NCBI GenBank assembly: GCA_049512075.1
Contig: JBEKXL010000026.1
Location: 1 to 27,672 of the forward strand
DNA from: Candidatus Bathyarchaeia archaeon
GTDB taxonomy: Archaea; Thermoproteota; Bathyarchaeia; Bathyarchaeales; Bathycorpusculaceae
Length of the DNA: 27,672 nt
Direction: 5' to 3'
Shown here: one piece after another, positions 15,110-27,672 of the stretch
How positions within the stretch are numbered: position 1 is the first letter of the stretch
How the letters are laid out: every line of letters begins with the position of its first letter
Made by a program: the position numbers and the translations under genes
Notes under the pieces: model-generated
The model's input: the letters and a program-made list of their open reading frames with translations, nothing else
Told to the model about the DNA's origin: nothing
The model's database searches: none

Positions 15110-15721
15110 CTATCCGTTTTCAGTTCGAGGATCCTCCACTTTCGGAAAATTCTCAAAAACACGCTTTAACTCTCTCTTCATCGATGCTGTGTCTTGGCTT
15201 AGACCAAAGTAATCCGCAAAGTATTCAGTCGTCCTGAGAACCATGGAACGCCCGTTTCTTTCGCTGGCAATCAAGCCCATATCCTTCAGCTCTTTTATGT
15301 GACCATAGGCATGGTGACCGCGCACGTCAACGACTCTTTTCTGTACTACGGGTTGCCGGTAGGCTATGTACGAAAGTGTCTTCAATGGACCGACAGAGAG
15401 CAACGGTCTGTTGACGAATTTTCTGACGTGCGGCGTGAAATCGCTTTTTAACTGCATGACAAATCTCTCATCCTTTAGTTCCAGGATTTCGAGGGCGGTG
15501 TCCCTGTTCAGGTAGTCCTGTATCAGTTTTTCCACAACCTTTCTTGTCCGGGCTTTTGACCGTGTCTTCAGAACCCAGCACAACTCGTTCATGTCTAGCG
15601 GGTGTCCAGCAACGTACAATGCAGCTTCCACAAGTACTAGGTCATTCTGTGGCTTGCTTCTTTTTTCTTCTTGTCCAACTTCCACGTCGGAATTGACTGC
15701 CTGTTTCTCAGCTTCTTGCAA
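15110..15721 (-). CDS. scpB: SMC-Scp complex subunit ScpB (kite)
   Basis: VEAALY, TLSYIAYRQPV, VRG and TTEYFADYFGL. Confidence 0.94.
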   Translation of the reverse strand: MQEAEKQAVNSDVEVGQEEKRSKPQNDLVLVEAALYVAGHPLDMNELCWVLKTRSKARTRKVVEKLIQDYLNRDTALEILELKDERFVMQLKSDFTPHVRKFVNRPLLSVGPLKTLSYIAYRQPVVQKRVVDVRGHHAYGHIKELKDMGLIASERNGRSMVLRTTEYFADYFGLSQDTASMKRELKRVFENFPKVEDPRTENG

Positions 15722-16394
15722 GACTTAACTCTCCAACCGTGATGTAAATCTCCTCTGTCTCCTCGTTCTGCCACAGGTTTATCTTCCCCTCTTGGGCGAG
15801 AAAGAGCAGCAGGATGAACGTGCGGATGGCCTCCAGTCGTCCAACACCGTTTACGAGGGTTGAGAGCTCTATCAAACCTGCGCCTTTCACTCTCTCCGAC
15901 AGAGATGCGTAGAGTTTTTCCATCTGGAGCTCGATTTCCATCAGGTACAAGTCTAGCTGTGGAAGAATCTCTGACGGTGTTGGCAGAACGTTCTGTGCAA
16001 CCGTTTTTTCCAAGTGTATCAGTTTTTCGCCCTTCAAGACGTCATCCAGGACTTCCAGCAGGTTCTTTATCGTTGTTGAAGTCAGTTCGTGTCTAAGGGG
16101 CAGAAACAGGGGCGGAGGCAAGAAGTCCTGCGGTCCCTTGGGCGGTGGCGGTGGTTCTTCGAGCTTCAGCAGGAGCCTAGACTTCATGAGGTATATGAGA
16201 GCTGAAGAATCAAGGGCAACGCCGGAGGCTCTGAAATCGACCTGCCCTGTTTTCTCCATGCGCTCAAGGAATGACGTGAGCAAATAGGCAATGTTAACGT
16301 TCCAGGGTACAAGCTTCTCGAGTTTGTGAAACTCGAAGAGGATGTTCCATGGCGGAAGCAGATAGAACGGCTTTCTTGTGGCTGCAGAGGACAT
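15708..16394 (-). CDS. scpA: Segregation/condensation protein A (kleisin)
   Basis: PWNVNI...FL...DFRASG...LIYLMKS N-terminus and C-terminal FILLLFLAQEGKINLWQ winged helix; lies between smc and scpB. Confidence 0.88.
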   Translation of the reverse strand: MSSAATRKPFYLLPPWNILFEFHKLEKLVPWNVNIAYLLTSFLERMEKTGQVDFRASGVALDSSALIYLMKSRLLLKLEEPPPPPKGPQDFLPPPLFLPLRHELTSTTIKNLLEVLDDVLKGEKLIHLEKTVAQNVLPTPSEILPQLDLYLMEIELQMEKLYASLSERVKGAGLIELSTLVNGVGRLEAIRTFILLLFLAQEGKINLWQNEETEEIYITVGELSLARS

Positions 16395-19300
16395 CAGCCC
16401 TGCGCCTCCAGGAATTTTGCCGAAACAACGTTCGAGTTTCCGTCGCGCATGTAGACGCCGTAGACTTTCTGGGCTTTGTTCACCATTTCAGGCTTCAGTG
16501 TGATGACTATGAACTGGGTCTCGTCCGACTCTTCCAGGAGCAGATCAGCCAGTTTTGAAACGTGCAGTGCGTCTAGGTGTGCGTCTACCTCGTCGAGAAC
16601 GTAGAAGGATGCGGGTGTGAACTCTCTCAGGGCGAATATGAATGCGACGGCTGCCACTGAACGTTCGCCGCCGCTGGCTCCACCCACCACTATCGAGGGC
16701 TTGTTGGGAAATGTTACGATCATGTCTATTCCACCCTGGAACGGATCTTCAGCGTTTTCAAGCGTCAGCACAGCGTCGCCTCCTCCTGTGACCTTCGAGA
16801 AGTACTTGCGCAAGTTCTGGTTTATCTTGTCAAACGCTTCTGTGAAGACTCTGCATTTTTTGTGGTCAATTTCATCCATGAACTGCAGTATTGCCTGTTT
16901 TTCTTTTTCAAGCTCGTTCATTCTCATCGACAGTTCTTTGTAACGCGAAATCTGATCCGCGTAATGAGAAAGTGCAAGTTGGTTGACGGCGCCTATTCTT
17001 TCCAGTTCGAACTGCATCATTCTTATGGAGGTTTCGGCCTCTTCAACCTGTTTCGGCGCGACGGCCAGTGGTTGCTCATAGCCGAGGAGTTTGAGCTGGT
17101 TTCGGCGTTGTTCAAGCTGCAGCAGAGACGTTTGAACGTTCAGTTGAAGCTGGTTCAGCAGTCTGTCAACCTGTTCATATTCAGTGTCGAGTTTCTTGAG
17201 TTCCTTGTCTATGTCGTCAATTTGGGTCGTGAATTTTTTCGATTCTTCTCTCGCTGAGAAAACACTCTTTGAAAGCTCAACCCGGCTTTTCTCGAGTTCT
17301 CCCAATTCCTGCTTCAGTGATTCTCTATCTTTCAATGCTTCTTCGACTTCTTTCTCGACTCTTCCCTGTTGCTGATTGACTTTTGAAACTTGGATCTTGG
17401 AGTTTTGATATCCAACCCTTAACACATTGTCGAATTGCGACTGGAGTGTTGACGTTTCAGTCTGGGTGGCGCCGAGCTTCTGTCTTAGGGTGATTATTTC
17501 TTCGGCGAGTTTTTCTCTGTCAACTTCCATTTCCTGAATGTGTCCAGGGTCTGCCTTCCTTCTTAAGGACGCCAACTCGGTTTGGAGCTTCCGCAATTCC
17601 TTCTGGATTGTGCTTCTCTCAGCCCTGTGTATCCACATCTGCGATTTTTCATTCTCTATCTCTTTGTCGGTTCGCGTAACTAGGTGATCAATTCGTTTAA
17701 CGTTTGATCTTGTTCTTCTGATGTTTCTTTTGACTCTGGCTATCTCGCGTTCCAGGGTGGTGATGGCTTCTGACAGGCGGGCGATTTCGACGCGGGTCTT
17801 GGCGATTTCTTCTTCGAAACCTGTGATGTCGCTTCCTCTTCTTGAGAGGTGCTGTTGCAGCGCGTTGACTGCTTCGTCTAGGCTTTTGATGGCCAGTTCG
17901 CTTGGGATTATCGTGGAGAAGTCTATTGGAGCGCGGTAGTATCCGCTTTCAAACGCGCCGCCTACCTCGTAGACGTCTCCGTTGACAGTGACCGCGCGGC
18001 AGCCTTTGGCGGAGAGGGCGAAGGCGGTCTTGTCATCTGAAACGATGAGTGTGTCTCCGAAAACAAAGTTGATTGCGGGCTCGAAGTTTTTCTCGTATTT
18101 CATGAAGAGTGGAGCTGCCCCGCTTATTCCCTCTTTTTCCGGAACCTTTGCGGGTTTGACGTTTGTTGCTTCTTGAAGGGGGATTATCTTTACTCGTCCG
18201 AGCTTCATTCTTCTCAGTGCCTCAGTGCAGGTGAAGGCTGAATCAAGATCTTTTACGACGAGTGCGTCTAGCCATCCGGTGGCGGCTGCTTCTATTGCGC
18301 GCTGAAAGCTCTTGTCAATCTTTATCATGTTGCGCAGTCTACCATAGACGCCTTGGATTACGCCGAGTTCGCCCAGTTCTTCTATGCTCCTCAACGCTTT
18401 TTCTTCTGCTGCAACGGTTTCTGCAAGTTCTCTCTGAGTTACGAACTCCACGACTGCTTCGCGGGCTGAATTAGCGATTTTTCCTGCCTCTTCTATTTCC
18501 CTCTCCGCAGCCTCCCTCTGTGCCATTCGTCTTTCGCGGGTTCGTTCCAGGTTTTTCAGCTGTGTCTTCTGTTCTTTCTGGACTTTTTCCAGTTCAAGGA
18601 ATGACTTTTCCAGTTCACTCATCGTTCCAGAAAATCGCGTTTTTCGGTCTTGTATATCTTTAAGTCTTCTAGCATGCACTCTGATGGCCGTCTGGTTTTT
18701 CAGATACTCAGATCTCAGGAATGCGAGCCTCTTGTAGTCATCCTCCAGTTTAAGCTCGATTTCGCGAATTCTCTTGCTGTTTTCGCCGAGGTTCTCCCAA
18801 AGCTGAACAGTCTCCTGTGCGAGAACATCGTGTTCAGCCTGTTTCTGACTTGTCTGGTCGGAGATTCTGTCGTTTTCACTTCTCAACTGTCTGATTCTCA
18901 GACGATTTTCACGTATCTCTTTTTGAATTGACTGGTACTGTTCCAGGTTGTTTTCTCTTATCCGCTTCAGGCCTTCGAGGCTTGTTTTTCCAGAGCTTAT
19001 TTTTGAGGCCATTTCCGTTAGTTTTGACTTGAGTTCTCCGATTCTCACCTGGACTTTCAGTACCTGTGAGCCGCCTTCTTCTACTATTTCTGAGCTTAGT
19101 CTTCGCCATTCGCCTTCAACGGCTCTTCTTTTCGATCTCCGACCATCCCGCAGTTGTCTCAGTTTTTCGAGTCTGCCGCCGATTTTTTCGGCTTCCGAAG
19201 AAGTCTCCTCCACCTTTTTCTGCGTTTGCGCCATTTCATACGAGATTTTGACTGTTTCAAACTTTCTTATCTCGCCGTGAATGAAGTTGGCTCTCAACAG

Positions 19301-19945
19301 TTCATTGCGCTCTCTTTCTAGATCATCCAGCCTTTTCTGCACTTCATCTATTCTTCCCATAGCCGTGCGGATGGAGATGTCTGCTGCTCGCAACTTCTCT
19401 TCTGCTTGAGCTTTTTCGCTGTCGTATTGGCCTATTCCCACCAGATCTTCGATTATTTTTCGGCGTTCCATGGGTGAGATGTCTGTCAGCCGTGTTATCG
19501 TGCCTTGCAAGATTATGTTCTGGCTCGTGGAGCTGATTCCAGCCATGGAGAGAATCTCCAGGGAGTGCGCTCTTGAGATTCTTCTTCCATTAAGTCTGTA
19601 GACGCTCTGCCCGTTTCTGTAAACCTCCCGTGAAATCGTAACCGTGACGGTGTCAACTGGCATGCGTCCGTCTGAATTGTCAAATTGGATGACGACCTTG
19701 GCCATTTTTGCTCTTTCCAGGCCGGTCTTTTCAGATCCGTGAAATATAAGTTTGGCAGCGGTTTCTGCACGGAGTCTTCTCGTGCTTAATTCGCCGAGCG
19801 AGAACAAGAATGCGTCCAGAATGTTTGTTTTTCCGCTTCCGTTAGGGCCTGTGATGACTGTGAAACCTTTATCTAGAGATACCTTAACGCCCTGCGGTCC
19901 GAATGACTTGAAGCCCTTAAGCTCTATCTTCTTAATGTAGGGCAT
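16394..19945 (-). CDS. smc: Chromosome segregation protein SMC
   Basis: GFKSF, Walker A GPNGSGKTN, coiled coils, hinge GVYGRL, signature ASGGE, Walker B/D-loop LDEVDAHLD; 1183 aa. Confidence 0.97.
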   Translation of the reverse strand: MPYIKKIELKGFKSFGPQGVKVSLDKGFTVITGPNGSGKTNILDAFLFSLGELSTRRLRAETAAKLIFHGSEKTGLERAKMAKVVIQFDNSDGRMPVDTVTVTISREVYRNGQSVYRLNGRRISRAHSLEILSMAGISSTSQNIILQGTITRLTDISPMERRKIIEDLVGIGQYDSEKAQAEEKLRAADISIRTAMGRIDEVQKRLDDLERERNELLRANFIHGEIRKFETVKISYEMAQTQKKVEETSSEAEKIGGRLEKLRQLRDGRRSKRRAVEGEWRRLSSEIVEEGGSQVLKVQVRIGELKSKLTEMASKISSGKTSLEGLKRIRENNLEQYQSIQKEIRENRLRIRQLRSENDRISDQTSQKQAEHDVLAQETVQLWENLGENSKRIREIELKLEDDYKRLAFLRSEYLKNQTAIRVHARRLKDIQDRKTRFSGTMSELEKSFLELEKVQKEQKTQLKNLERTRERRMAQREAAEREIEEAGKIANSAREAVVEFVTQRELAETVAAEEKALRSIEELGELGVIQGVYGRLRNMIKIDKSFQRAIEAAATGWLDALVVKDLDSAFTCTEALRRMKLGRVKIIPLQEATNVKPAKVPEKEGISGAAPLFMKYEKNFEPAINFVFGDTLIVSDDKTAFALSAKGCRAVTVNGDVYEVGGAFESGYYRAPIDFSTIIPSELAIKSLDEAVNALQQHLSRRGSDITGFEEEIAKTRVEIARLSEAITTLEREIARVKRNIRRTRSNVKRIDHLVTRTDKEIENEKSQMWIHRAERSTIQKELRKLQTELASLRRKADPGHIQEMEVDREKLAEEIITLRQKLGATQTETSTLQSQFDNVLRVGYQNSKIQVSKVNQQQGRVEKEVEEALKDRESLKQELGELEKSRVELSKSVFSAREESKKFTTQIDDIDKELKKLDTEYEQVDRLLNQLQLNVQTSLLQLEQRRNQLKLLGYEQPLAVAPKQVEEAETSIRMMQFELERIGAVNQLALSHYADQISRYKELSMRMNELEKEKQAILQFMDEIDHKKCRVFTEAFDKINQNLRKYFSKVTGGGDAVLTLENAEDPFQGGIDMIVTFPNKPSIVVGGASGGERSVAAVAFIFALREFTPASFYVLDEVDAHLDALHVSKLADLLLEESDETQFIVITLKPEMVNKAQKVYGVYMRDGNSNVVSAKFLEAQG

Positions 19946-20008
19946 TCAGTTTAAGCCCTCACTTTCTCCGAAACATGCCCCTATCTCATCGTAGACATTT
20001 GTCTGATG

Positions 20009-20020
20009 TTTTTATAAAAA
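20009..20020 (-). promoter_or_regulatory. Putative TATA box of smc-scpAB
   Basis: TTTTTATAAAAA about 65 bp upstream of the smc ATG. Confidence 0.45.
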
Positions 20021-20059
20021 TGTTTACTGTGTCTCCAAGCTTTAACAGTTACGTACTTT

Positions 20060-20584
20060 TCAGTGTTCTTTTCCAGCCTTCGACTTGTACTTTGCAGCAA
20101 TTTTCTTGACAAAATCTTTCAAGACCGCGTCTGGTCCCAAAACAACCAGGTACTCGTCGTTTTGGACTTTGCACGAAAGATTCGATTCCTTTGCAAGAGC
20201 TTTCAGTTTTTCGAGGGACAACTCGTTTGAGGGTGTGAGGCGAATCCACTTCTGTTCTCCGGGCACGCCGGAAATGAACTTTGTTTCCTCTTCCTCTTCA
20301 TCCACGATTTTTCGGCCAGCTTCATCCGTCCGCTGAAGCCATTCATCAACGTATGCTTGGCCGAACCTTCTCTGTCCCTCAGAAATCAGGTAGGATTCTA
20401 CATTTGTAAGGTATCCGTCAATTTTCTGTGCGTTCTCCCCGCGGCTTGGGTCAGCTTTCAAAATCTTGATTATTGTCTTTGCGCTTTTCAAGTCGCCAAT
20501 TATGTCTGCTGGAACGGTTACTTCTTTTTTCTTGAAGTCGGTAACCATTTCTTCCAGCACCTTCCAAACGGCGAGGTATCCCAT
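20060..20584 (-). CDS. DUF2096-like archaeal protein
   Basis: W.VL..M..D...DL..AKT.I and VESYL..., F..GVP...WIR pattern recalled for this family; probable ATG at 20584. Confidence 0.65.
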   Translation of the reverse strand: MGYLAVWKVLEEMVTDFKKKEVTVPADIIGDLKSAKTIIKILKADPSRGENAQKIDGYLTNVESYLISEGQRRFGQAYVDEWLQRTDEAGRKIVDEEEEETKFISGVPGEQKWIRLTPSNELSLEKLKALAKESNLSCKVQNDEYLVVLGPDAVLKDFVKKIAAKYKSKAGKEH

Positions 20585-20678
20585 GGGCCAGTTCACTGTT
20601 CCATGTTTCTTTAGGCAATCGTATTTATTTAGGAATTGTCATGATAGGATGGAACAAATGAAAACTCTGGGAAATTGC

Positions 20679-21257
20679 TCAGAAACCAGATTGGGCTTGG
20701 ATGGGTAAGCGTTTTCCAAATCTCTCTTCATAGACTATTTGGCGAAGTTCTTTTCTTTCTTTTTTCAGAATGTCGTACTTGGCGTGCCCAATCGGGAGAA
20801 GCGTTATCACACGGTGGTTTTTCGGGATTTCCAGAATTTTTTTCACTTTGGCCTCAGCTGAGTTCTTCTGGTCTTTCAAGTCAAAGATGCCAATCCAAGC
20901 GGTTTGCAATCCCAGACTGTGAGCGGCGAGGGCCATGTTCTGTGTTGCTATGGCCCCGGCCTCTACAAAGTGGTACGGGTCTTCCTCAGTGTTAACGGTG
21001 ACTGCGATGCAAACTGGCGCTTCTCTTAGTCCCTGGACAAAAGCCGTGGGAACTACCTCGCTCAATTGTTCTTTCGTTTTCGGGTCTTTTATGATTGTGA
21101 AGTTCCAGGGCTGCTTGTTAAGCCAGGAAGGTGCCCACCGTCCAGCCTCAAGGACATCTTCAACCTTGCCCTGTTCCACACCGGTGCTTTCAAATCTGAG
21201 GGTTGTTCGTCTTTTCTTGATTACGTCCAAAACTGGGTTGTCCATAGGCTCATTCAT
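20679..21257 (-). CDS. Nitroreductase family protein
   Basis: IKKRRT.LRF, WAPSWLNKQPW, QNMALAAHSLGL and LPIGH; TTATAAAA box at 21284-21291. Confidence 0.92.
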   Translation of the reverse strand: MNEPMDNPVLDVIKKRRTTLRFESTGVEQGKVEDVLEAGRWAPSWLNKQPWNFTIIKDPKTKEQLSEVVPTAFVQGLREAPVCIAVTVNTEEDPYHFVEAGAIATQNMALAAHSLGLQTAWIGIFDLKDQKNSAEAKVKKILEIPKNHRVITLLPIGHAKYDILKKERKELRQIVYEERFGKRLPIQAQSGF

Positions 21258-21471
21258 CCTCTTAGTATCTGGTTAGAACCGTATTTTATAAGCTTTAACA
21301 CTTTTGATCACGCGGCTAAGACGGAGTCTTGTGTCCGTTGAGGGAATATCCCGTTTTGTGAAAAGAGGGATTTTGACATGTTTTTTGGGCCAATAGAGTG
21401 AATTTCCGATTCTGCTTTTGAATTCATAAACGTTTAATGTTTCAGAAAGTTAGTTGTGTCTGCAGGGTGAG

Positions 21472-21696
21472 TTGTCTTTGAACGAACAAATCCTTCAAGC
21501 TTGCAAAGAATTGGTTGACGACGCAAAGCAGGGTTGCGCTGATTTGGTTTTTAAAGAAGTCTGTCTCGAAATTCTATCAAGAGCAAGTCACGTTTTGACA
21601 GAACGCCAATTCAAACAGCTGGCTACGTACACGTCTGAAAGAATGAAAGGGAAAATGTCTCTTGAACTTCAACAGGAATTAGCTATGAACAGGTAG
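21472..21696 (+). CDS. Small helical hypothetical protein
   Basis: TTG at 21472 preceded by a GGTGAG RBS; 74 aa amphipathic helical sequence; fills the intergenic gap. Confidence 0.6.
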   Translation: MSLNEQILQACKELVDDAKQGCADLVFKEVCLEILSRASHVLTERQFKQLATYTSERMKGKMSLELQQELAMNR

Positions 21697-21852
21697 GGCA
21701 TAGCGTAGCTTCGCACGTTAATCGTCTCAGTATCATTAAGCGCATTTCAACTCTCGCTGAGGCTGTATCTCCGGTCGTCCTCACCCTGCCTTGCCTTTTT
21801 CGCAACATTTTTTTGTTACAGATACGACTTGAAACGGGTTACGTATCGGAGC

Positions 21853-22341
21853 TTAGCTGAGCTTGTAGCCTATTTTCCGCAGAAACTCCTTCCTCTCTTT
21901 GATGTCCAGCTCGGTTTCTATGCCCTTGCTCTTCGCCCCGTCGACTACGCCGACTATTCCTCTTCCTTGCTGTGTTTCTGCAATGATAATTTCTAGGGGG
22001 TTTGCTGTTGCGGCATAGATTGTGCAGACTTCTGGGACTCTCTTAACCTTGTCTAGGACGTTTATTGGGTAAGCGTTCTTCAAGAATATTATGAAACTGT
22101 GGCCGCAGCCGATTTCAAACGCAGTTTTTGCTGCGAGTTGCCTCAACTCTTCATCAGTTCCTTCATGCCTCACTAGGCATGGGCCTGAGCTTTCGCAGAA
22201 GCCTATACCGAACTTTATGTTGGGAACGGCGCTAACCAACGCTTCATACAGGTCTTCTACAGTTTTGATGAAATGCGCCATGCCCAGAATCACGTTGCAA
22301 CCTTCACGCGCTTCAACCCTGACAGTTTTGTACTCCAACAT
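21853..22341 (-). CDS. Adenosine-specific kinase family protein (AMP-binding, PF04008-like)
   Basis: [37 protein letters not shown] and [10 protein letters not shown]. Confidence 0.9.
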
Positions 22342-22414
22342 TAGGATTCCCCTGCTTGCTTGCTAGTGTATTACTTCTTAATCTACATTTTTGAGTTTGA
22401 ACTTTGCCACTTTC

Positions 22415-22832
22415 GCTGCGAGCGCGCGCGTTGCTAATCCAAGTATGCTGAAACACCTTTTGCATCATAGCCCAGCGAAGTCGCCCCCCTTTTTCACTTG
22501 TAATGTCAGATGTAATGTGTATGGTAACAAACCATGAAGAAAATCAGGCTGAACTACCGTTCAGAGTGGACTCGGCCCGTTTATTTGTAATGTCAGATGT
22601 AATTTTCATTGTAATAGTCAGGGATTTGGTAGTGTTGCCCGTGGTACAAAGCCAGAATGGTCAGGTCTGGCAGGCTTACTTCGCCGTTGCCGCCTACGTC
22701 GCGCGCGCCGAGTTTCTGGCTGAGAGAACGGGGCTGTTACATGAGGAATTCGCCGTTTTTTGTAGAAGGGCTTATCGTCTGCGCATATTTCTCCGTTTTC
22801 TTCATGTCTTTGAGTGTGCGCGCGTTCGCAGC
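22415..22832. repeat. 418-bp non-coding segment bounded by 15-bp imperfect inverted repeats
   Basis: GCTGCGAGCGCGCGC (22415-22429) versus GCGCGCGTTCGCAGC (22818-22832): 14/15 complementary. Confidence 0.55.
22498..22615. repeat. Two perfect 19-bp direct repeats built from TGTAAT units at 12-bp period
   Basis: TTGTAATGTCAGATGTAAT at 22498-22516 and 22585-22603; extra units at 22523 (GGTAAC) and 22610 (TGTAAT). Confidence 0.85.
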
Positions 22833-22919
22833 TTAGCCCTTTTTTTGGTTGTCGGTCGGAAAAAGTGCCCAATAGTCAGTACAGACCCGAATCCGCTTCG
22901 TCATCATTTCTACGACAAG

Positions 22920-22927
22920 TTTTATAA
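22920..22927 (+). promoter_or_regulatory. Putative BRE/TATA of the CxxC-x17-CxxC gene
   Basis: CGACAAG followed by TTTTATAA, about 80 bp upstream of the ATG at 23007. Confidence 0.45.
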
Positions 22928-23006
22928 GTCTCTGAGGCTTGTGATAACTGCGTCGTGCAAGAAGCGATTTTTGCACAAAACAAGCAAAAGGAGTTGAAAT
23001 CGTAAA

Positions 23007-23147
23007 ATGGCAGAGAAAGAGATGCACAAGGCAGTTTGCGCTGATTGTGGAAAGGAATGCGAAGTTCCCTTCAAGCCTGACACAAGCAGACCAGTATACT
23101 GCCGAGAGTGTTGGTCCAAGAAAAGAAACTCGAGAAGAAGATTCTAA
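23007..23147 (+). CDS. CxxC-x17-CxxC zinc-ribbon protein (46 aa; not in ORF track)
   Basis: Manual translation MAEKEMHKAVCADCGKECEVPFKPDTSRPVYCRECWSKKRNSRRRF; AGGAG upstream; T-rich tract downstream. Confidence 0.92.
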   Translation: MAEKEMHKAVCADCGKECEVPFKPDTSRPVYCRECWSKKRNSRRRF

Positions 23148-23355
23148 ATCAAGCTAATCGCTTTATAGAAACCGTCTTTATTCTCTCTTTTCTTTTTAAG
23201 TGCACACCATTCAGGTTGTGTTTCTAGTCCCTTCAATTTGCGCCAGAGACACGGCATGAGTTTCGGATTGAGGTTTTTGAGCCTCTGCCGTGGAAAGCGT
23301 GAGACCGAAAGCTCTAAATTTCTTGGCGTTCGTCTTTTGTAAAGCAAGTAAAGAC

Positions 23356-23432
23356 GGGCCGGTAGTTCAGTTGGTATGAACGCCTGACTTGCACTCAGGA
23401 GGTCTGGGGTTCAAATCCCCACCGGTCCACCA
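23356..23432 (+). tRNA. tRNA-Ala (anticodon UGC), intronless, CCA encoded
   Basis: Acceptor GGGCCGG/CCGGTCC with the G3:U70 Ala determinant; D stem GTTC/GAAC; anticodon arm CCTGA-CTTGCAC-TCAGG; T arm TGGGG-TTCAAAT-CCCCA; A73 then CCA. Confidence 0.97.
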
Positions 23433-23564
23433 GCGCGCATGCCTGTTCCTAAATTCATTTGCGGGCGATATATACTTCTTCATTCATGACACAGTCCCTT
23501 GCAGCGAGATACAACTCAAGCCTACTGCACCCAAAGAAGGAATTTAGGAACACCCTAGCGCGCT
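23432..23564. repeat. 133-bp inverted-repeat element directly after tRNA-Ala
   Basis: AGCGCGC-N5-TGTTCCTAAATTC at both ends in inverted orientation (7/7 and 13/13 perfect; N5 mismatched). Confidence 0.85.
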
Positions 23565-23735
23565 ACCAGCCTCCGAATCTCTGAGCCGGCGGAAACATGT
23601 CGAATGCACAGCTTGGCTGTTGTAGAAAGTGCGGTCGTAAAGGTCAGCTGGGAGAGGCTTGAGACAGATAGCACAGCAGGCGGCCTTCTGTTCCGCTACT
23701 GGAACACTTGGAACTCGTGGAACGCATGTTTCCAC
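23544..23735 (-). CDS. Putative small zinc-finger protein (CxxC...HxxC)
   Basis: CAICLKPL...VHSTCF ligand pattern; purine-rich leader; last codons and TAA stop lie inside the repeat arm. Confidence 0.45.
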   Translation of the reverse strand: METCVPRVPSVPVAEQKAACCAICLKPLPADLYDRTFYNSQAVHSTCFRRLRDSEAGSALGCS

Positions 23736-23783
23736 TCTCTTTTTTTCTCTCTCCTTAGCGCGCGCTGAACCAGAAAGCGACTC

Positions 23784-24152
23784 TTGGGAATTTCAGGCCT
23801 TTCAGGAAGGAACAGAACAAAAGATGATTTTTGGCATGACCGGAGAGAAAGCGTCAAAACGTCTCTCATAGACTTGGGCCTCTTTATAGAAGTGGCTGAA
23901 AAAGACCAGGTGAACCAAGTTTTGACTCAAGAAAACCTGACGCCTGTAGTCGAGGCACTTCTTTGGCATCCAGTGGTCGATCGAGCTGATCCGGACTTTG
24001 GAAGGGCTGAGATCGCTTAGCTATTCATTCAAGCGGGTTTCAATTACCTAAGTGCTATGAGGGCTAATAACATGACTCTTTCTCATAAGCGGACGATAGA
24101 GGAAGCCATTGATTTGAGTAGATATCTTATGGAATCCTTTAGCGCGCGCTAG
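23784..24152 (+). pseudogene. Fragment of an unknown gene with an internal TAG, bounded by GCGCGCGC palindromes
   Basis: 78-codon ORF, TAG at 24018-24020, then 43 more open codons in the same frame (LFIQAGFNYL...ESFSAR) ending at a TAG in the 24140 palindrome. Confidence 0.5.
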
Positions 24153-24577
24153 TAGAAGTACGTTGCTGTTATTATCGCAGATGCTCGACTGGCGTTTAGG
24201 TTGCCGACGGCGATTTCCACGGAAGCCGGCAGAATAGGAAAAGTCACGTTCGCCTCGTCTACTCCCGGGTTCACTCTGCGACTGTAGCTGAGGCCATTAG
24301 CATAGTAGGACACCTCTATGTATATGCTGGGAGATGCTGATTCCAATTGAACTGTAACATACCCTGCATAGCCAACCGAATAGGAATTATCAGCTTCCCC
24401 ATTGCTCTCAAAGATGAAATAATGCTGGTCAAGCAAAATCTGAGATTCGCACAGATCGACAATATTGCTGAGCCTATATACCCCACTCACCACAAACACC
24501 AGACCAACCACGAGTACCACGCATGAAATTCCAAGCACAATGGCGATGCCTCTACCGACGACTTTCTTTTCACTCAT
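24149..24577 (-). CDS. Membrane-anchored hypothetical protein (N-terminal TM helix, beta-rich extracellular domain)
   Basis: MSEKKVVGR plus a ~25-aa hydrophobic helix, then YAGYVTV and FPILP beta strands; stop TAG is part of TAGCGCGCGCTA. Confidence 0.75.
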   Translation of the reverse strand: MSEKKVVGRGIAIVLGISCVVLVVGLVFVVSGVYRLSNIVDLCESQILLDQHYFIFESNGEADNSYSVGYAGYVTVQLESASPSIYIEVSYYANGLSYSRRVNPGVDEANVTFPILPASVEIAVGNLNASRASAIITATYFY

Positions 24578-24665
24578 CGTGAAACCTCTGATTTACTGTG
24601 TGAGGCCGTGGAAAATAAAGATTAGCACACATTCCGCCAAGCGCGCGCTAAAGAGATAACACCCG

Positions 24666-27545: not shown

Positions 27546-27653
27546 AGCGCGCTGGCTTGTCCCTAAAATGGTTAAAAATGGTTTTTATTCTTCTTTTGTC
27601 TTTTCGAGTTGGATATGGGCTTGTTTTCTGGGCAAATCTTGGCCGCGCGCTAA
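27546..27653 (+). repeat. Third locus of the GCGCGC-anchored TGTTCC arm, closed by another CG palindrome
   Basis: AGCGCGC-TGGCT-TGTCCCTAAAATGGTTAAAAATGGTTTT is 31/40 identical to 421-460; CGCGCGCTAA at 27644-27653. Confidence 0.7.
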
Positions 27654-27672
27654 GATGGCAAATCAACGGGTT

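Follow-up and report, generated by a model that had tools for sequence, protein, structure and literature searches.

In the genome of a soil or peat Bathyarchaeon, a tRNA-Ala gene runs directly into a 133-nt unit whose two halves mirror each other, box, 5-nt spacer and box, much as the arms of an integron attC site do. What is this unit, and does it call for a recombination system of its own? The stretch of DNA analysed here (27,672 nt; 'the window') is the complete contig C26 of assembly G000, a Bathyarchaeia MAG of 2.73 Mb in 86 contigs with 47.5% G+C. An earlier note on this DNA had described the boxes, the 5-nt spacers, the 83-bp centre and the mirror arm following the tRNA CCA, and that description is exact base for base. 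The unit, its neighbour and its relatives in the window are as follows.

23356-23432, plus strand: tRNA-Ala(TGC) with encoded CCA (ARAGORN; Rfam RF00005, 69.9 bits)
23432-23564: MITE-like element of 133 nt (repeat search; sequence read directly)
23432-23459, plus strand: left terminal inverted repeat, consisting of A, the GCGCGC tip, ATGCC, a TGTTCC box and TAAATTC (family profile, nhmmer E 1.6e-7)
23537-23564, minus strand: right terminal inverted repeat of the same layout, with TAGGG replacing ATGCC (nhmmer E 5.9e-6)
421-606: second family copy, 186 nt (box-spacer-box pattern and end profile)
27546-27672, plus strand: left end of a third copy, of TGGCT/TGTCCC type, cut by the contig end (end profile)

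The left half of the element reads AGCGCGC (23432-23438), ATGCC and TGTTCCTAAATTC (23444-23456), followed by the 83-nt centre; the right half reads GAATTTAGGAACA (23540-23552), CCCTA and GCGCGCT (23558-23564). The final A of the tRNA CCA (23432) doubles as the first base of the left arm. The arms, 28 nt each with 77 nt between them, are 82% complementary, and their mismatches are concentrated in the two 5-nt segments; ATGCC and TAGGG match at one of five positions, which agrees with the four mismatches counted earlier. Six box-spacer-box patterns occur in the window where 0.73 are expected, and 0 of 100 shuffles reach six. The element has no transposase gene, the sole overlapping frame of at least 60 aa (23544-23735, minus strand) merely entering the right arm. 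The earlier proposal that this arm provides the stop codon of an incoming ORF holds to that extent, for an ORF of only 63 aa with a GTG start and no Pfam match.

Rfam at gathering thresholds reports nothing besides the tRNA in the whole window; intron-bearing tRNAs elsewhere in the genome help to place it in Bathyarchaeia. Homology between the window and G002 (99%), G003 and G004 (congeneric species) ends at the discriminator base of the tRNA-Ala, and in G002 and G003 the same tRNA has no encoded CCA and is followed, 3′ of the discriminator, by unrelated DNA. Together with a 99.15% identical strain that differs from the window right after CCA-GCGCGC, these breaks are in keeping with the earlier remark that tRNA 3′ ends are hotspots of integration.

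A family of ends with transposase-bearing members

The 25-nt left end, with up to six mismatches allowed, has 73 matches in the genome against a single one in its reversed sequence. A profile of the ends (nhmmer, E ≤ 1) detects 137 termini; 43 plus/minus pairs within 1600 nt delimit elements of 133–1333 nt, some of these pairs depending on weak ends (up to E 0.7); a further 51 termini have no partner. The paired copies that the earlier note had proposed to collect are thus present in number. Length classes of 133 nt (two copies) and 164 nt (six copies) are accompanied by others near 185, 214 and 305 nt. In the 83 good termini the GCGCGC tip is 97–100% identical; it is followed by five bases of few types (ATGCN, TAGSS, TGGCT-like), by a hexamer box (TGTTCC, TGTCCC or CGTTGC) and by TAAA. 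At least nine contig ends stop inside copies, six plus-strand termini lying 125–127 nt before contig ends and three minus-strand termini 106–128 nt from contig starts. Since contigs break ~125–128 nt into copies, the true copy number must be higher than that counted. Copies occupy different loci in different species and unrelated contexts within G000, where the search for paralogous empty sites found 0.

Two insertions coincide with the ends of genes. The TAG stop (420-422) of a Rieske-protein ORF (84-422) is composed of a flanking T and the AG of the left arm of the 421-606 copy, and at G000:C3:7466-7468 the same TAG stop again arises from a flanking T and the AG of an arm; the homologous gene of G004 is four codons longer.

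A scan of the genome for DDE_Tnp_1 gave matches at eight places, three of which lie inside ~1.11-kb elements with inverted ends of the family type. These are full-length insertion sequences (ISs).

C32:7468-8578: full-length IS, ORF of 289 aa, DUF772 and DDE_Tnp_1 above Pfam cut-offs
C39:6538-7654: full-length IS, ORF of 348 aa, DUF772 and DDE_Tnp_1 above Pfam cut-offs
C15:7516-8641: full-length IS containing a DDE_Tnp_1 match

The C32 and C39 ORFs score 46.4 and 62.5 bits against a Pfam cut-off of 23, and 35.5 and 26.5 bits against one of 23.1. ISs and short elements share one end architecture, GCGCGC, 5 nt, a YGTYSC box and TAAAT, and the profile made from the short elements had already caught one C32 and one C39 IS end (E 1.5e-4 and 5.4e-4). 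The left arm of the window copy is identical to the C32 IS end at 18 of the first 24 bases, with all differences but one in the 5-nt segment. The boxes of the IS ends are TGTCCC or CGTTGC, one or two bases off the TGTTCC of the window copy, and a search of G000 found no full-length IS with TGTTCC itself. Full-length copies are also present in G001, G003 and G004 at 84–89% identity, and GCGCGC tips are carried by IS copies at unrelated loci in the four species.

The full-length copies resemble ISs of the IS5 and IS1182 groups in length (~1.11 kb), in their inverted ends of 24–29 nt and in their single DUF772–DDE_Tnp_1 ORF. IS1182 (3e-24) and IS5 (3.6e-19) are also the best NCBIfam models for the ORFs; however, the scores are far below the equivalog cut-offs (85.8 versus 270 bits for IS1182, 69.2 versus 140 bits for IS5), and no direct repeats flank the copies. 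Two other candidate partners were rejected. TA flanks of the copies (see below) had prompted a search for an IS630/Tc1-type partner, and the sole DDE_3 match is on contig C58, which has no family ends and a different composition. C58 is 1927 nt long, with identical first and last 127 nt (circular or tandem) and the DDE_3 gene in its G+C-rich half; either contamination or a small circular element may explain it. The only TnpB-type match in the scan, at C1:12636, is unrelated to the family ends.

The 133-nt element has a twin in the genome, 98.5% identical (G000:C3:114692-114824), and members of its subfamily were located in G001, G002, G004 and G021, the last belonging to another genus; the subfamily is ~74–77% conserved across species and in the other genus, its interior included. 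The 5-nt segments, on which the attC analogy turned, follow the same lines of descent. In most family pairs the two arms have 5-nt segments of one type that differ at a single position; those of the 421-606 copy, ATGCT and ATGCG, match at four of five, just as the earlier note had reported that they pair. The ATGCC / TAG[C/G]G asymmetry occurs in nine pairs of one clade (two of 133 nt, six of 164 nt and one of 167 nt) and in the 133-nt subfamily copies of three other species (G001, G002 and G004), while the G021 copy has TAGCG-type segments in both arms. The recurrence of this asymmetry in nine clade copies and in other species indicates that the 5-nt segment is inherited with the subfamily. 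Within each subfamily the 5-nt segments are as conserved as the boxes; such conservation, seen here in nine copies and three species, is what the earlier note had named as the mark of a simple MITE terminal repeat, as opposed to an attC-like site.

Elements of ~483 nt (C35:463-945 and C2:161409-161892) are intermediate between the ISs and the short elements, with a single 124-aa gene between family ends and no transposase; the reading frame of the C2 copy has no evident start, and shorter elements contain remnants of the gene. In other Bathyarchaeia MAGs, family ends stand on both sides of the gene at six of eight loci, the remaining two being cut or degraded. The protein family comprises at least 252 metagenome clusters (E ≤ 0.001); almost all are ~124 aa long and many lie on contigs shorter than 2 kb, and a search for longer fused forms found none. 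An N-terminal winged helix is followed by a strongly conserved tail with four invariant cysteines, and the 14 invariant columns among 40 sequences 52–92% identical to the query indicate clear constraint. Within the ends of the ~483-nt elements, two TAAAWTGGT-like repeats lie beside a TTTTTAT stretch ~25 nt before the ATG, which suggests that the 124-aa protein may act on the ends of its own element.

We considered whether this protein might be a hidden transposase and rejected the idea: its AlphaFold model (pLDDT 73, with the C-terminus below 50) matches only regulators of the PadR/ArsR/MarR/HlyU type and has no catalytic domain, and its similarity to the IS transposase is not significant (E 0.59). 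A weak profile match to the Z-DNA-binding domain Zalpha (E 0.015–0.06), attractive in view of the (GC)n tips, was likewise discarded, as it ranks below archaeal regulators (Lrs14-like, 4e-7), and Zalpha is absent among the Foldseek matches listed for the protein.

A MITE/IS family is indicated by the end architecture held in common, by the dispersal of the copies, by relatives with a transposase gene and by the intermediate ~483-nt elements. We conclude that the window unit is very likely a non-autonomous MITE of a family that includes ~1.11-kb ISs with DUF772 and DDE_Tnp_1, of the IS5/IS1182 type. If so, the attC-like shape beside the tRNA consists of MITE ends, and no new recombination system need be invoked. 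The transposase of a full-length copy would bind each arm at its box and TAAAT part, and would cut at or beside the GCGCGC tip; transposition would then have moved a copy to the 3′ flank of the tRNA-Ala. The 5-nt difference between the arms would date from an ancestor of the subfamily with two different end types.

Evidence for a target-site duplication was sought at the flanks. TA adjoins 50 of the 83 good termini (58 have T at −1 and 63 have A at +1), farther positions being at background. Nevertheless, TA is present on both sides of only two of seven near-identical 164–167-nt copies, and the IS copies have it on one side at most and lack flanking direct repeats. No target-site duplication was found, and the dinucleotide may instead belong to the ends themselves. 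For six elements, the syntenic regions of G002, G003 and G004 yielded no clean filled/empty pair, and no clean empty site emerged when the elements in 378 kb of G002 were checked back in G000 or when the IS copies of G000 and three relatives were compared. Each filled/empty comparison met a rearrangement on one side or both in the other genome, and chimeric MAG assembly across repeats may account for part of this shortage of pairs and for some of the apparent breakpoints considered next.

GC runs and strain differences

GCGCGC is not confined to the family. It occurs 1873 times in the genome, where ~490 are expected from composition and the other six all-G+C palindromic hexamers number 203–482, so that it is 4–9 times commoner than these; CGCGCG, which overlaps it, occurs 1347 times. 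Alternating GC runs of 6–13 nt number 1227, and family termini account for only 118 of the GCGCGC occurrences. Open reading frames of at least 120 aa contain 354 of the 1227 runs (29%), though they cover 77.5% of the genome and 70–86% of the other palindromes lie inside ORFs. The runs occur in clusters, and of the 670 segments bounded by runs, 121 recur elsewhere. HIP1 (GCGATCGC), described as the highly iterated palindrome of cyanobacteria (PMC5861425, PMC4390886), is likewise a short G+C-rich palindrome far commoner than its peers; the excess given there for HIP1 is 15- to 300-fold, whereas that of GCGCGC is ~4- to 9-fold, and the GCGCGC runs are mostly intergenic and tied to the ends of a transposon family.

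The distribution of the 10-mer TAGCGCGCTA makes this tie plain. It is found 12 times in G000, 14 in G002, 9 in G004, 5 in G001 and 11 in G021, once in G003 and 0–2 times in each of 35 other genomes, the reversed control also giving 0–2; 36 of 41 related genomes are thus at control level. The rich genomes (G000, G001, G002, G004 and G021) are those in which subfamily copies were found. Since the 10-mer is frequent only there, the GC runs are tied to the elements, whichever role is assigned to them.

About seven GC runs, the two tips of the 133-nt element among them, punctuate the window between 22400 and 24700, in the company of the following features.

22424-22709: copy of a ~285-nt repeat unrelated to the family, with GC runs at its two ends, 22422-22430 and 22700-22708 (39 BLAST hits in G000)
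22709-22817: stretch homologous to the flank of a 342-aa ORF in G003 and G004 (339 aa in G004)
23758-23765: solo GCGCGCGC run
24142-24149: solo GCGCGCGC run at the stop of ORF 24149-24577 (minus strand)
24641-24648: solo GCGCGCGC run on the other side of ORF 24149-24577

Truncated copies of the 285-nt repeat are often capped by GC runs, at differing positions. The repeat has a more widespread core of ~130 nt (22484-22614), its full copies start and end with (GC)4 runs, and ORF 22503-22997, which overlaps it, has no Pfam match. A GC run at 22818-22824 stands where G003 and G004 keep the intact 342-aa gene; G002 also lacks the stretch 22709-22817, a single GC run joining the two sides. A further repeat family starts with TCATGNNTTGTTACCNCACAACATTACCACG right after a GCGCGC-type run (G000:C3:3299-3614, C11 near 10024 and G002:C1 near 204720).

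Comparison of near-identical strains places sharp breaks at these runs. A contig of sequencing run X5, from such a strain, aligns with window positions 23045-23438 and 23558-24149, has 9574 other letters in the gap between them and departs from the window at 24149; all three breakpoints are at GC runs. L085, an independent metagenome contig, shares 99.15% identity with window 15678-23438 over 7765 nt and diverges right after CCA-GCGCGCG. The remainder of L085 (7766-10897) is a strain-specific island encoding an 89-aa HTH protein, small unknown proteins and an HD-CE and TPR protein of at least 355 aa; the island was not found in the 41 related genomes, and the profile detects no family end at its start. 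A search of metagenomes with the tRNA-end pattern gave 18 matches, 15 of them chance matches in high-G+C bacterial coding DNA; L094 shares only ~50 nt of the tRNA end, and L088 is identical to the window.

Alignment of G000 with 378 kb of G002 reveals 30 colinear indels, and several of the short alleles are, or end in, a GC run. In G002:C4, the 10-nt string TAGCACGCGC (or TAGCACG+CGCGC) replaces 2551 nt (C1:38750-41302) and 313 nt (C1:94034-94348) of G000, and its presence at two sites looks like a recurrent deletion scar. At the G002 ortholog of C4:14725, a different repeat follows the same GCGCGC. A 1359-nt insertion in G002 (C14:19263-20621, relative to G000:C7:35818-35839) has a ~9–10 bp direct repeat and no GC-run ends, and is probably an IS of another family. 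Excision footprints were sought in 223 kb of aligned G000/G002 sequence: no GC-run indel of at least 6 nt was found, and one 5-nt CGCGC is present among 19 gaps of at least 5 nt.

These observations are the basis of the main rival explanation, that GCGCGC is not, or not only, a tip but a recombination or target core at which MITEs, the 285-nt repeat, cassettes and islands are inserted, swapped and deleted, the 133-nt unit being the current occupant of a slot. The intergenic excess of GC runs, most of them away from family termini, the breakpoints of X5 and L085, the short indel alleles, the capped repeat truncations and the exchanged repeat at the C4:14725 ortholog all fit this explanation. 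Moreover, an X5 slot with 9574 other letters is not what simple TA-targeted transposition predicts, and it counts against the MITE reading. We nonetheless regard the core as rather improbable. Transposon ends usually have an invariant tip with variable binding boxes behind it, and the tips are most simply taken as part of such ends, all the more as ISs at unrelated loci in four species carry them. The rarity of TAGCGCGCTA in most related genomes argues against a general host feature, the 223-kb alignment yielded no GC-run indels of the requisite size, and chimeric MAG assembly across repeats could produce some of the apparent breakpoints.

The scars may also be secondary to transposition. Palindromic tips are direct repeats as well, whether the two stand at the foot of one hairpin or belong to adjacent elements. 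Slippage or recombination between such repeats would produce solo runs, remove the DNA between elements and uncouple elements from their flanks. Such events would explain most of the GC-run pattern; they would not readily account for a 99% identical strain in which precisely the interior has been replaced, and for this reason the target or junction model is kept as the main rival. A more ambitious version, in which GCGCGC runs are active junctions that exchange, insert and lose blocks of any kind, leaving scars, and in which the 124-aa protein takes part by binding the ends, seems to us unlikely. If it were true, the junctions would amount to a cassette-like genome-shuffling system in Bathyarchaeia, built on transposon tips and not on an integron.

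Folding and the likeness to attC sites

As a single strand the window copy folds more stably than its shuffles (DNA, −21.6 kcal/mol, z −3.27; RNA, −39.5 kcal/mol, z −3.77). This stability, and the conservation of the subfamily into its interior, would be expected if the unit were kept for a function of its own as structured RNA or DNA, for example as a terminator or processing hairpin for tRNA-Ala transcripts. We consider this very improbable, as inverted ends alone produce such stability and the copies lie in unrelated contexts, with no Rfam match. Moreover, changes in one arm are uncompensated in the other throughout the subfamily alignment (for instance in the G001 copies L095 and L096), and there is therefore no sign of selection for a folded site. 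The capacity of the window copy to form a hairpin is incidental to its inverted ends, although the hairpin could affect read-through transcripts of the tRNA-Ala. The earlier suggestion of a folded or double-stranded site for a different recombinase can accordingly be narrowed: double-stranded ends recognized by a transposase are retained and the folded site is given up.

The resemblance to integron attC sites lies in the box/5-nt loop/box geometry, in a length within the attC range, in an imperfect hairpin with an internal unpaired stretch and in the occasional overlap with stop codons; 22 Phage_integrase matches in the genome might be thought to supply an integron-type tyrosine recombinase. 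However, attC sites have an RYYYAAC inverse core and a GTTRRRY core at their two ends, and the element, whose outer boxes are AGCGCGC and GCGCGCT, has neither, as the earlier note had itself pointed out. None of the integrase matches is within the window, which offers no integron integrase context. The spacers match at four of five positions in most family copies, and conservation is of sequence and not of structure. The family is dispersed, is defined by terminal inverted repeats and has full-length members with a DDE transposase gene. The attC analogy is therefore not supported, a folded site of an integron-type recombinase being extremely unlikely. An invertible promoter between inverted repeats, proposed on account of the TATA-like GATATATAC that is indeed present in the centre, is hardly credible either: that stretch is not conserved in the subfamily copies of other species, the unit is a copy of a dispersed family with no adjacent recombinase gene, and no strand-changing joint is listed at the element in the contigs of four runs, which drop rare variants.

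Relation to known mobile elements

The MITE reading places the element among familiar company. In common with prokaryotic MITEs it has small size, terminal inverted repeats, many dispersed and mostly intergenic copies, no transposase of its own, a capacity for hairpins in transcripts and partner ISs with the same ends; the alternating-hexamer GCGCGC tips and the presence of two different 5-nt segments in one clade set it apart. The Correia elements of Neisseria and the MITEs of Sulfolobus are cited as derived from or mobilised by ISs, and the archaeal MITEs listed in the same source are from Sulfolobus, Halobacterium, Haloquadratum and others, Bathyarchaeia not being in that list (PMC10969869). 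A literature search for MITEs in Bathyarchaeota or Bathyarchaeia found no paper.

Mobile insertion cassettes (MICs), of which there is an example in Bacillus cereus, have IS-type ends around a passenger gene and no transposase. The ~483-nt elements share this organization, and their distinguishing feature is the passenger, a predicted winged-helix, four-cysteine DNA-binding protein under clear constraint. The series from IS through gene-carrying cassette to MITE is a known pattern, and the element at the tRNA-Ala is an ordinary MITE in an under-described host. The family documents this series in Bathyarchaeia, which are abundant uncultured archaea. Its elements break assemblies and mark differences between close genomes, and so matter for binning, for synteny analysis and for the understanding of gene loss. 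At the level of the family, the points of note would be the GCGCGC tips, as putative landmarks of genome differences, and the small, presumptive DNA-binding gene between transposon ends.

A second conserved sequence lies just upstream of the tRNA-Ala. The stretch at ~22914-23166 is 77–88% conserved, with several copies per genome across many genera of this archaeal family. Rfam has no match for it, nor Pfam for its small frame (22922-23119, minus strand), and it could represent a small RNA or small gene family that is as yet undescribed.
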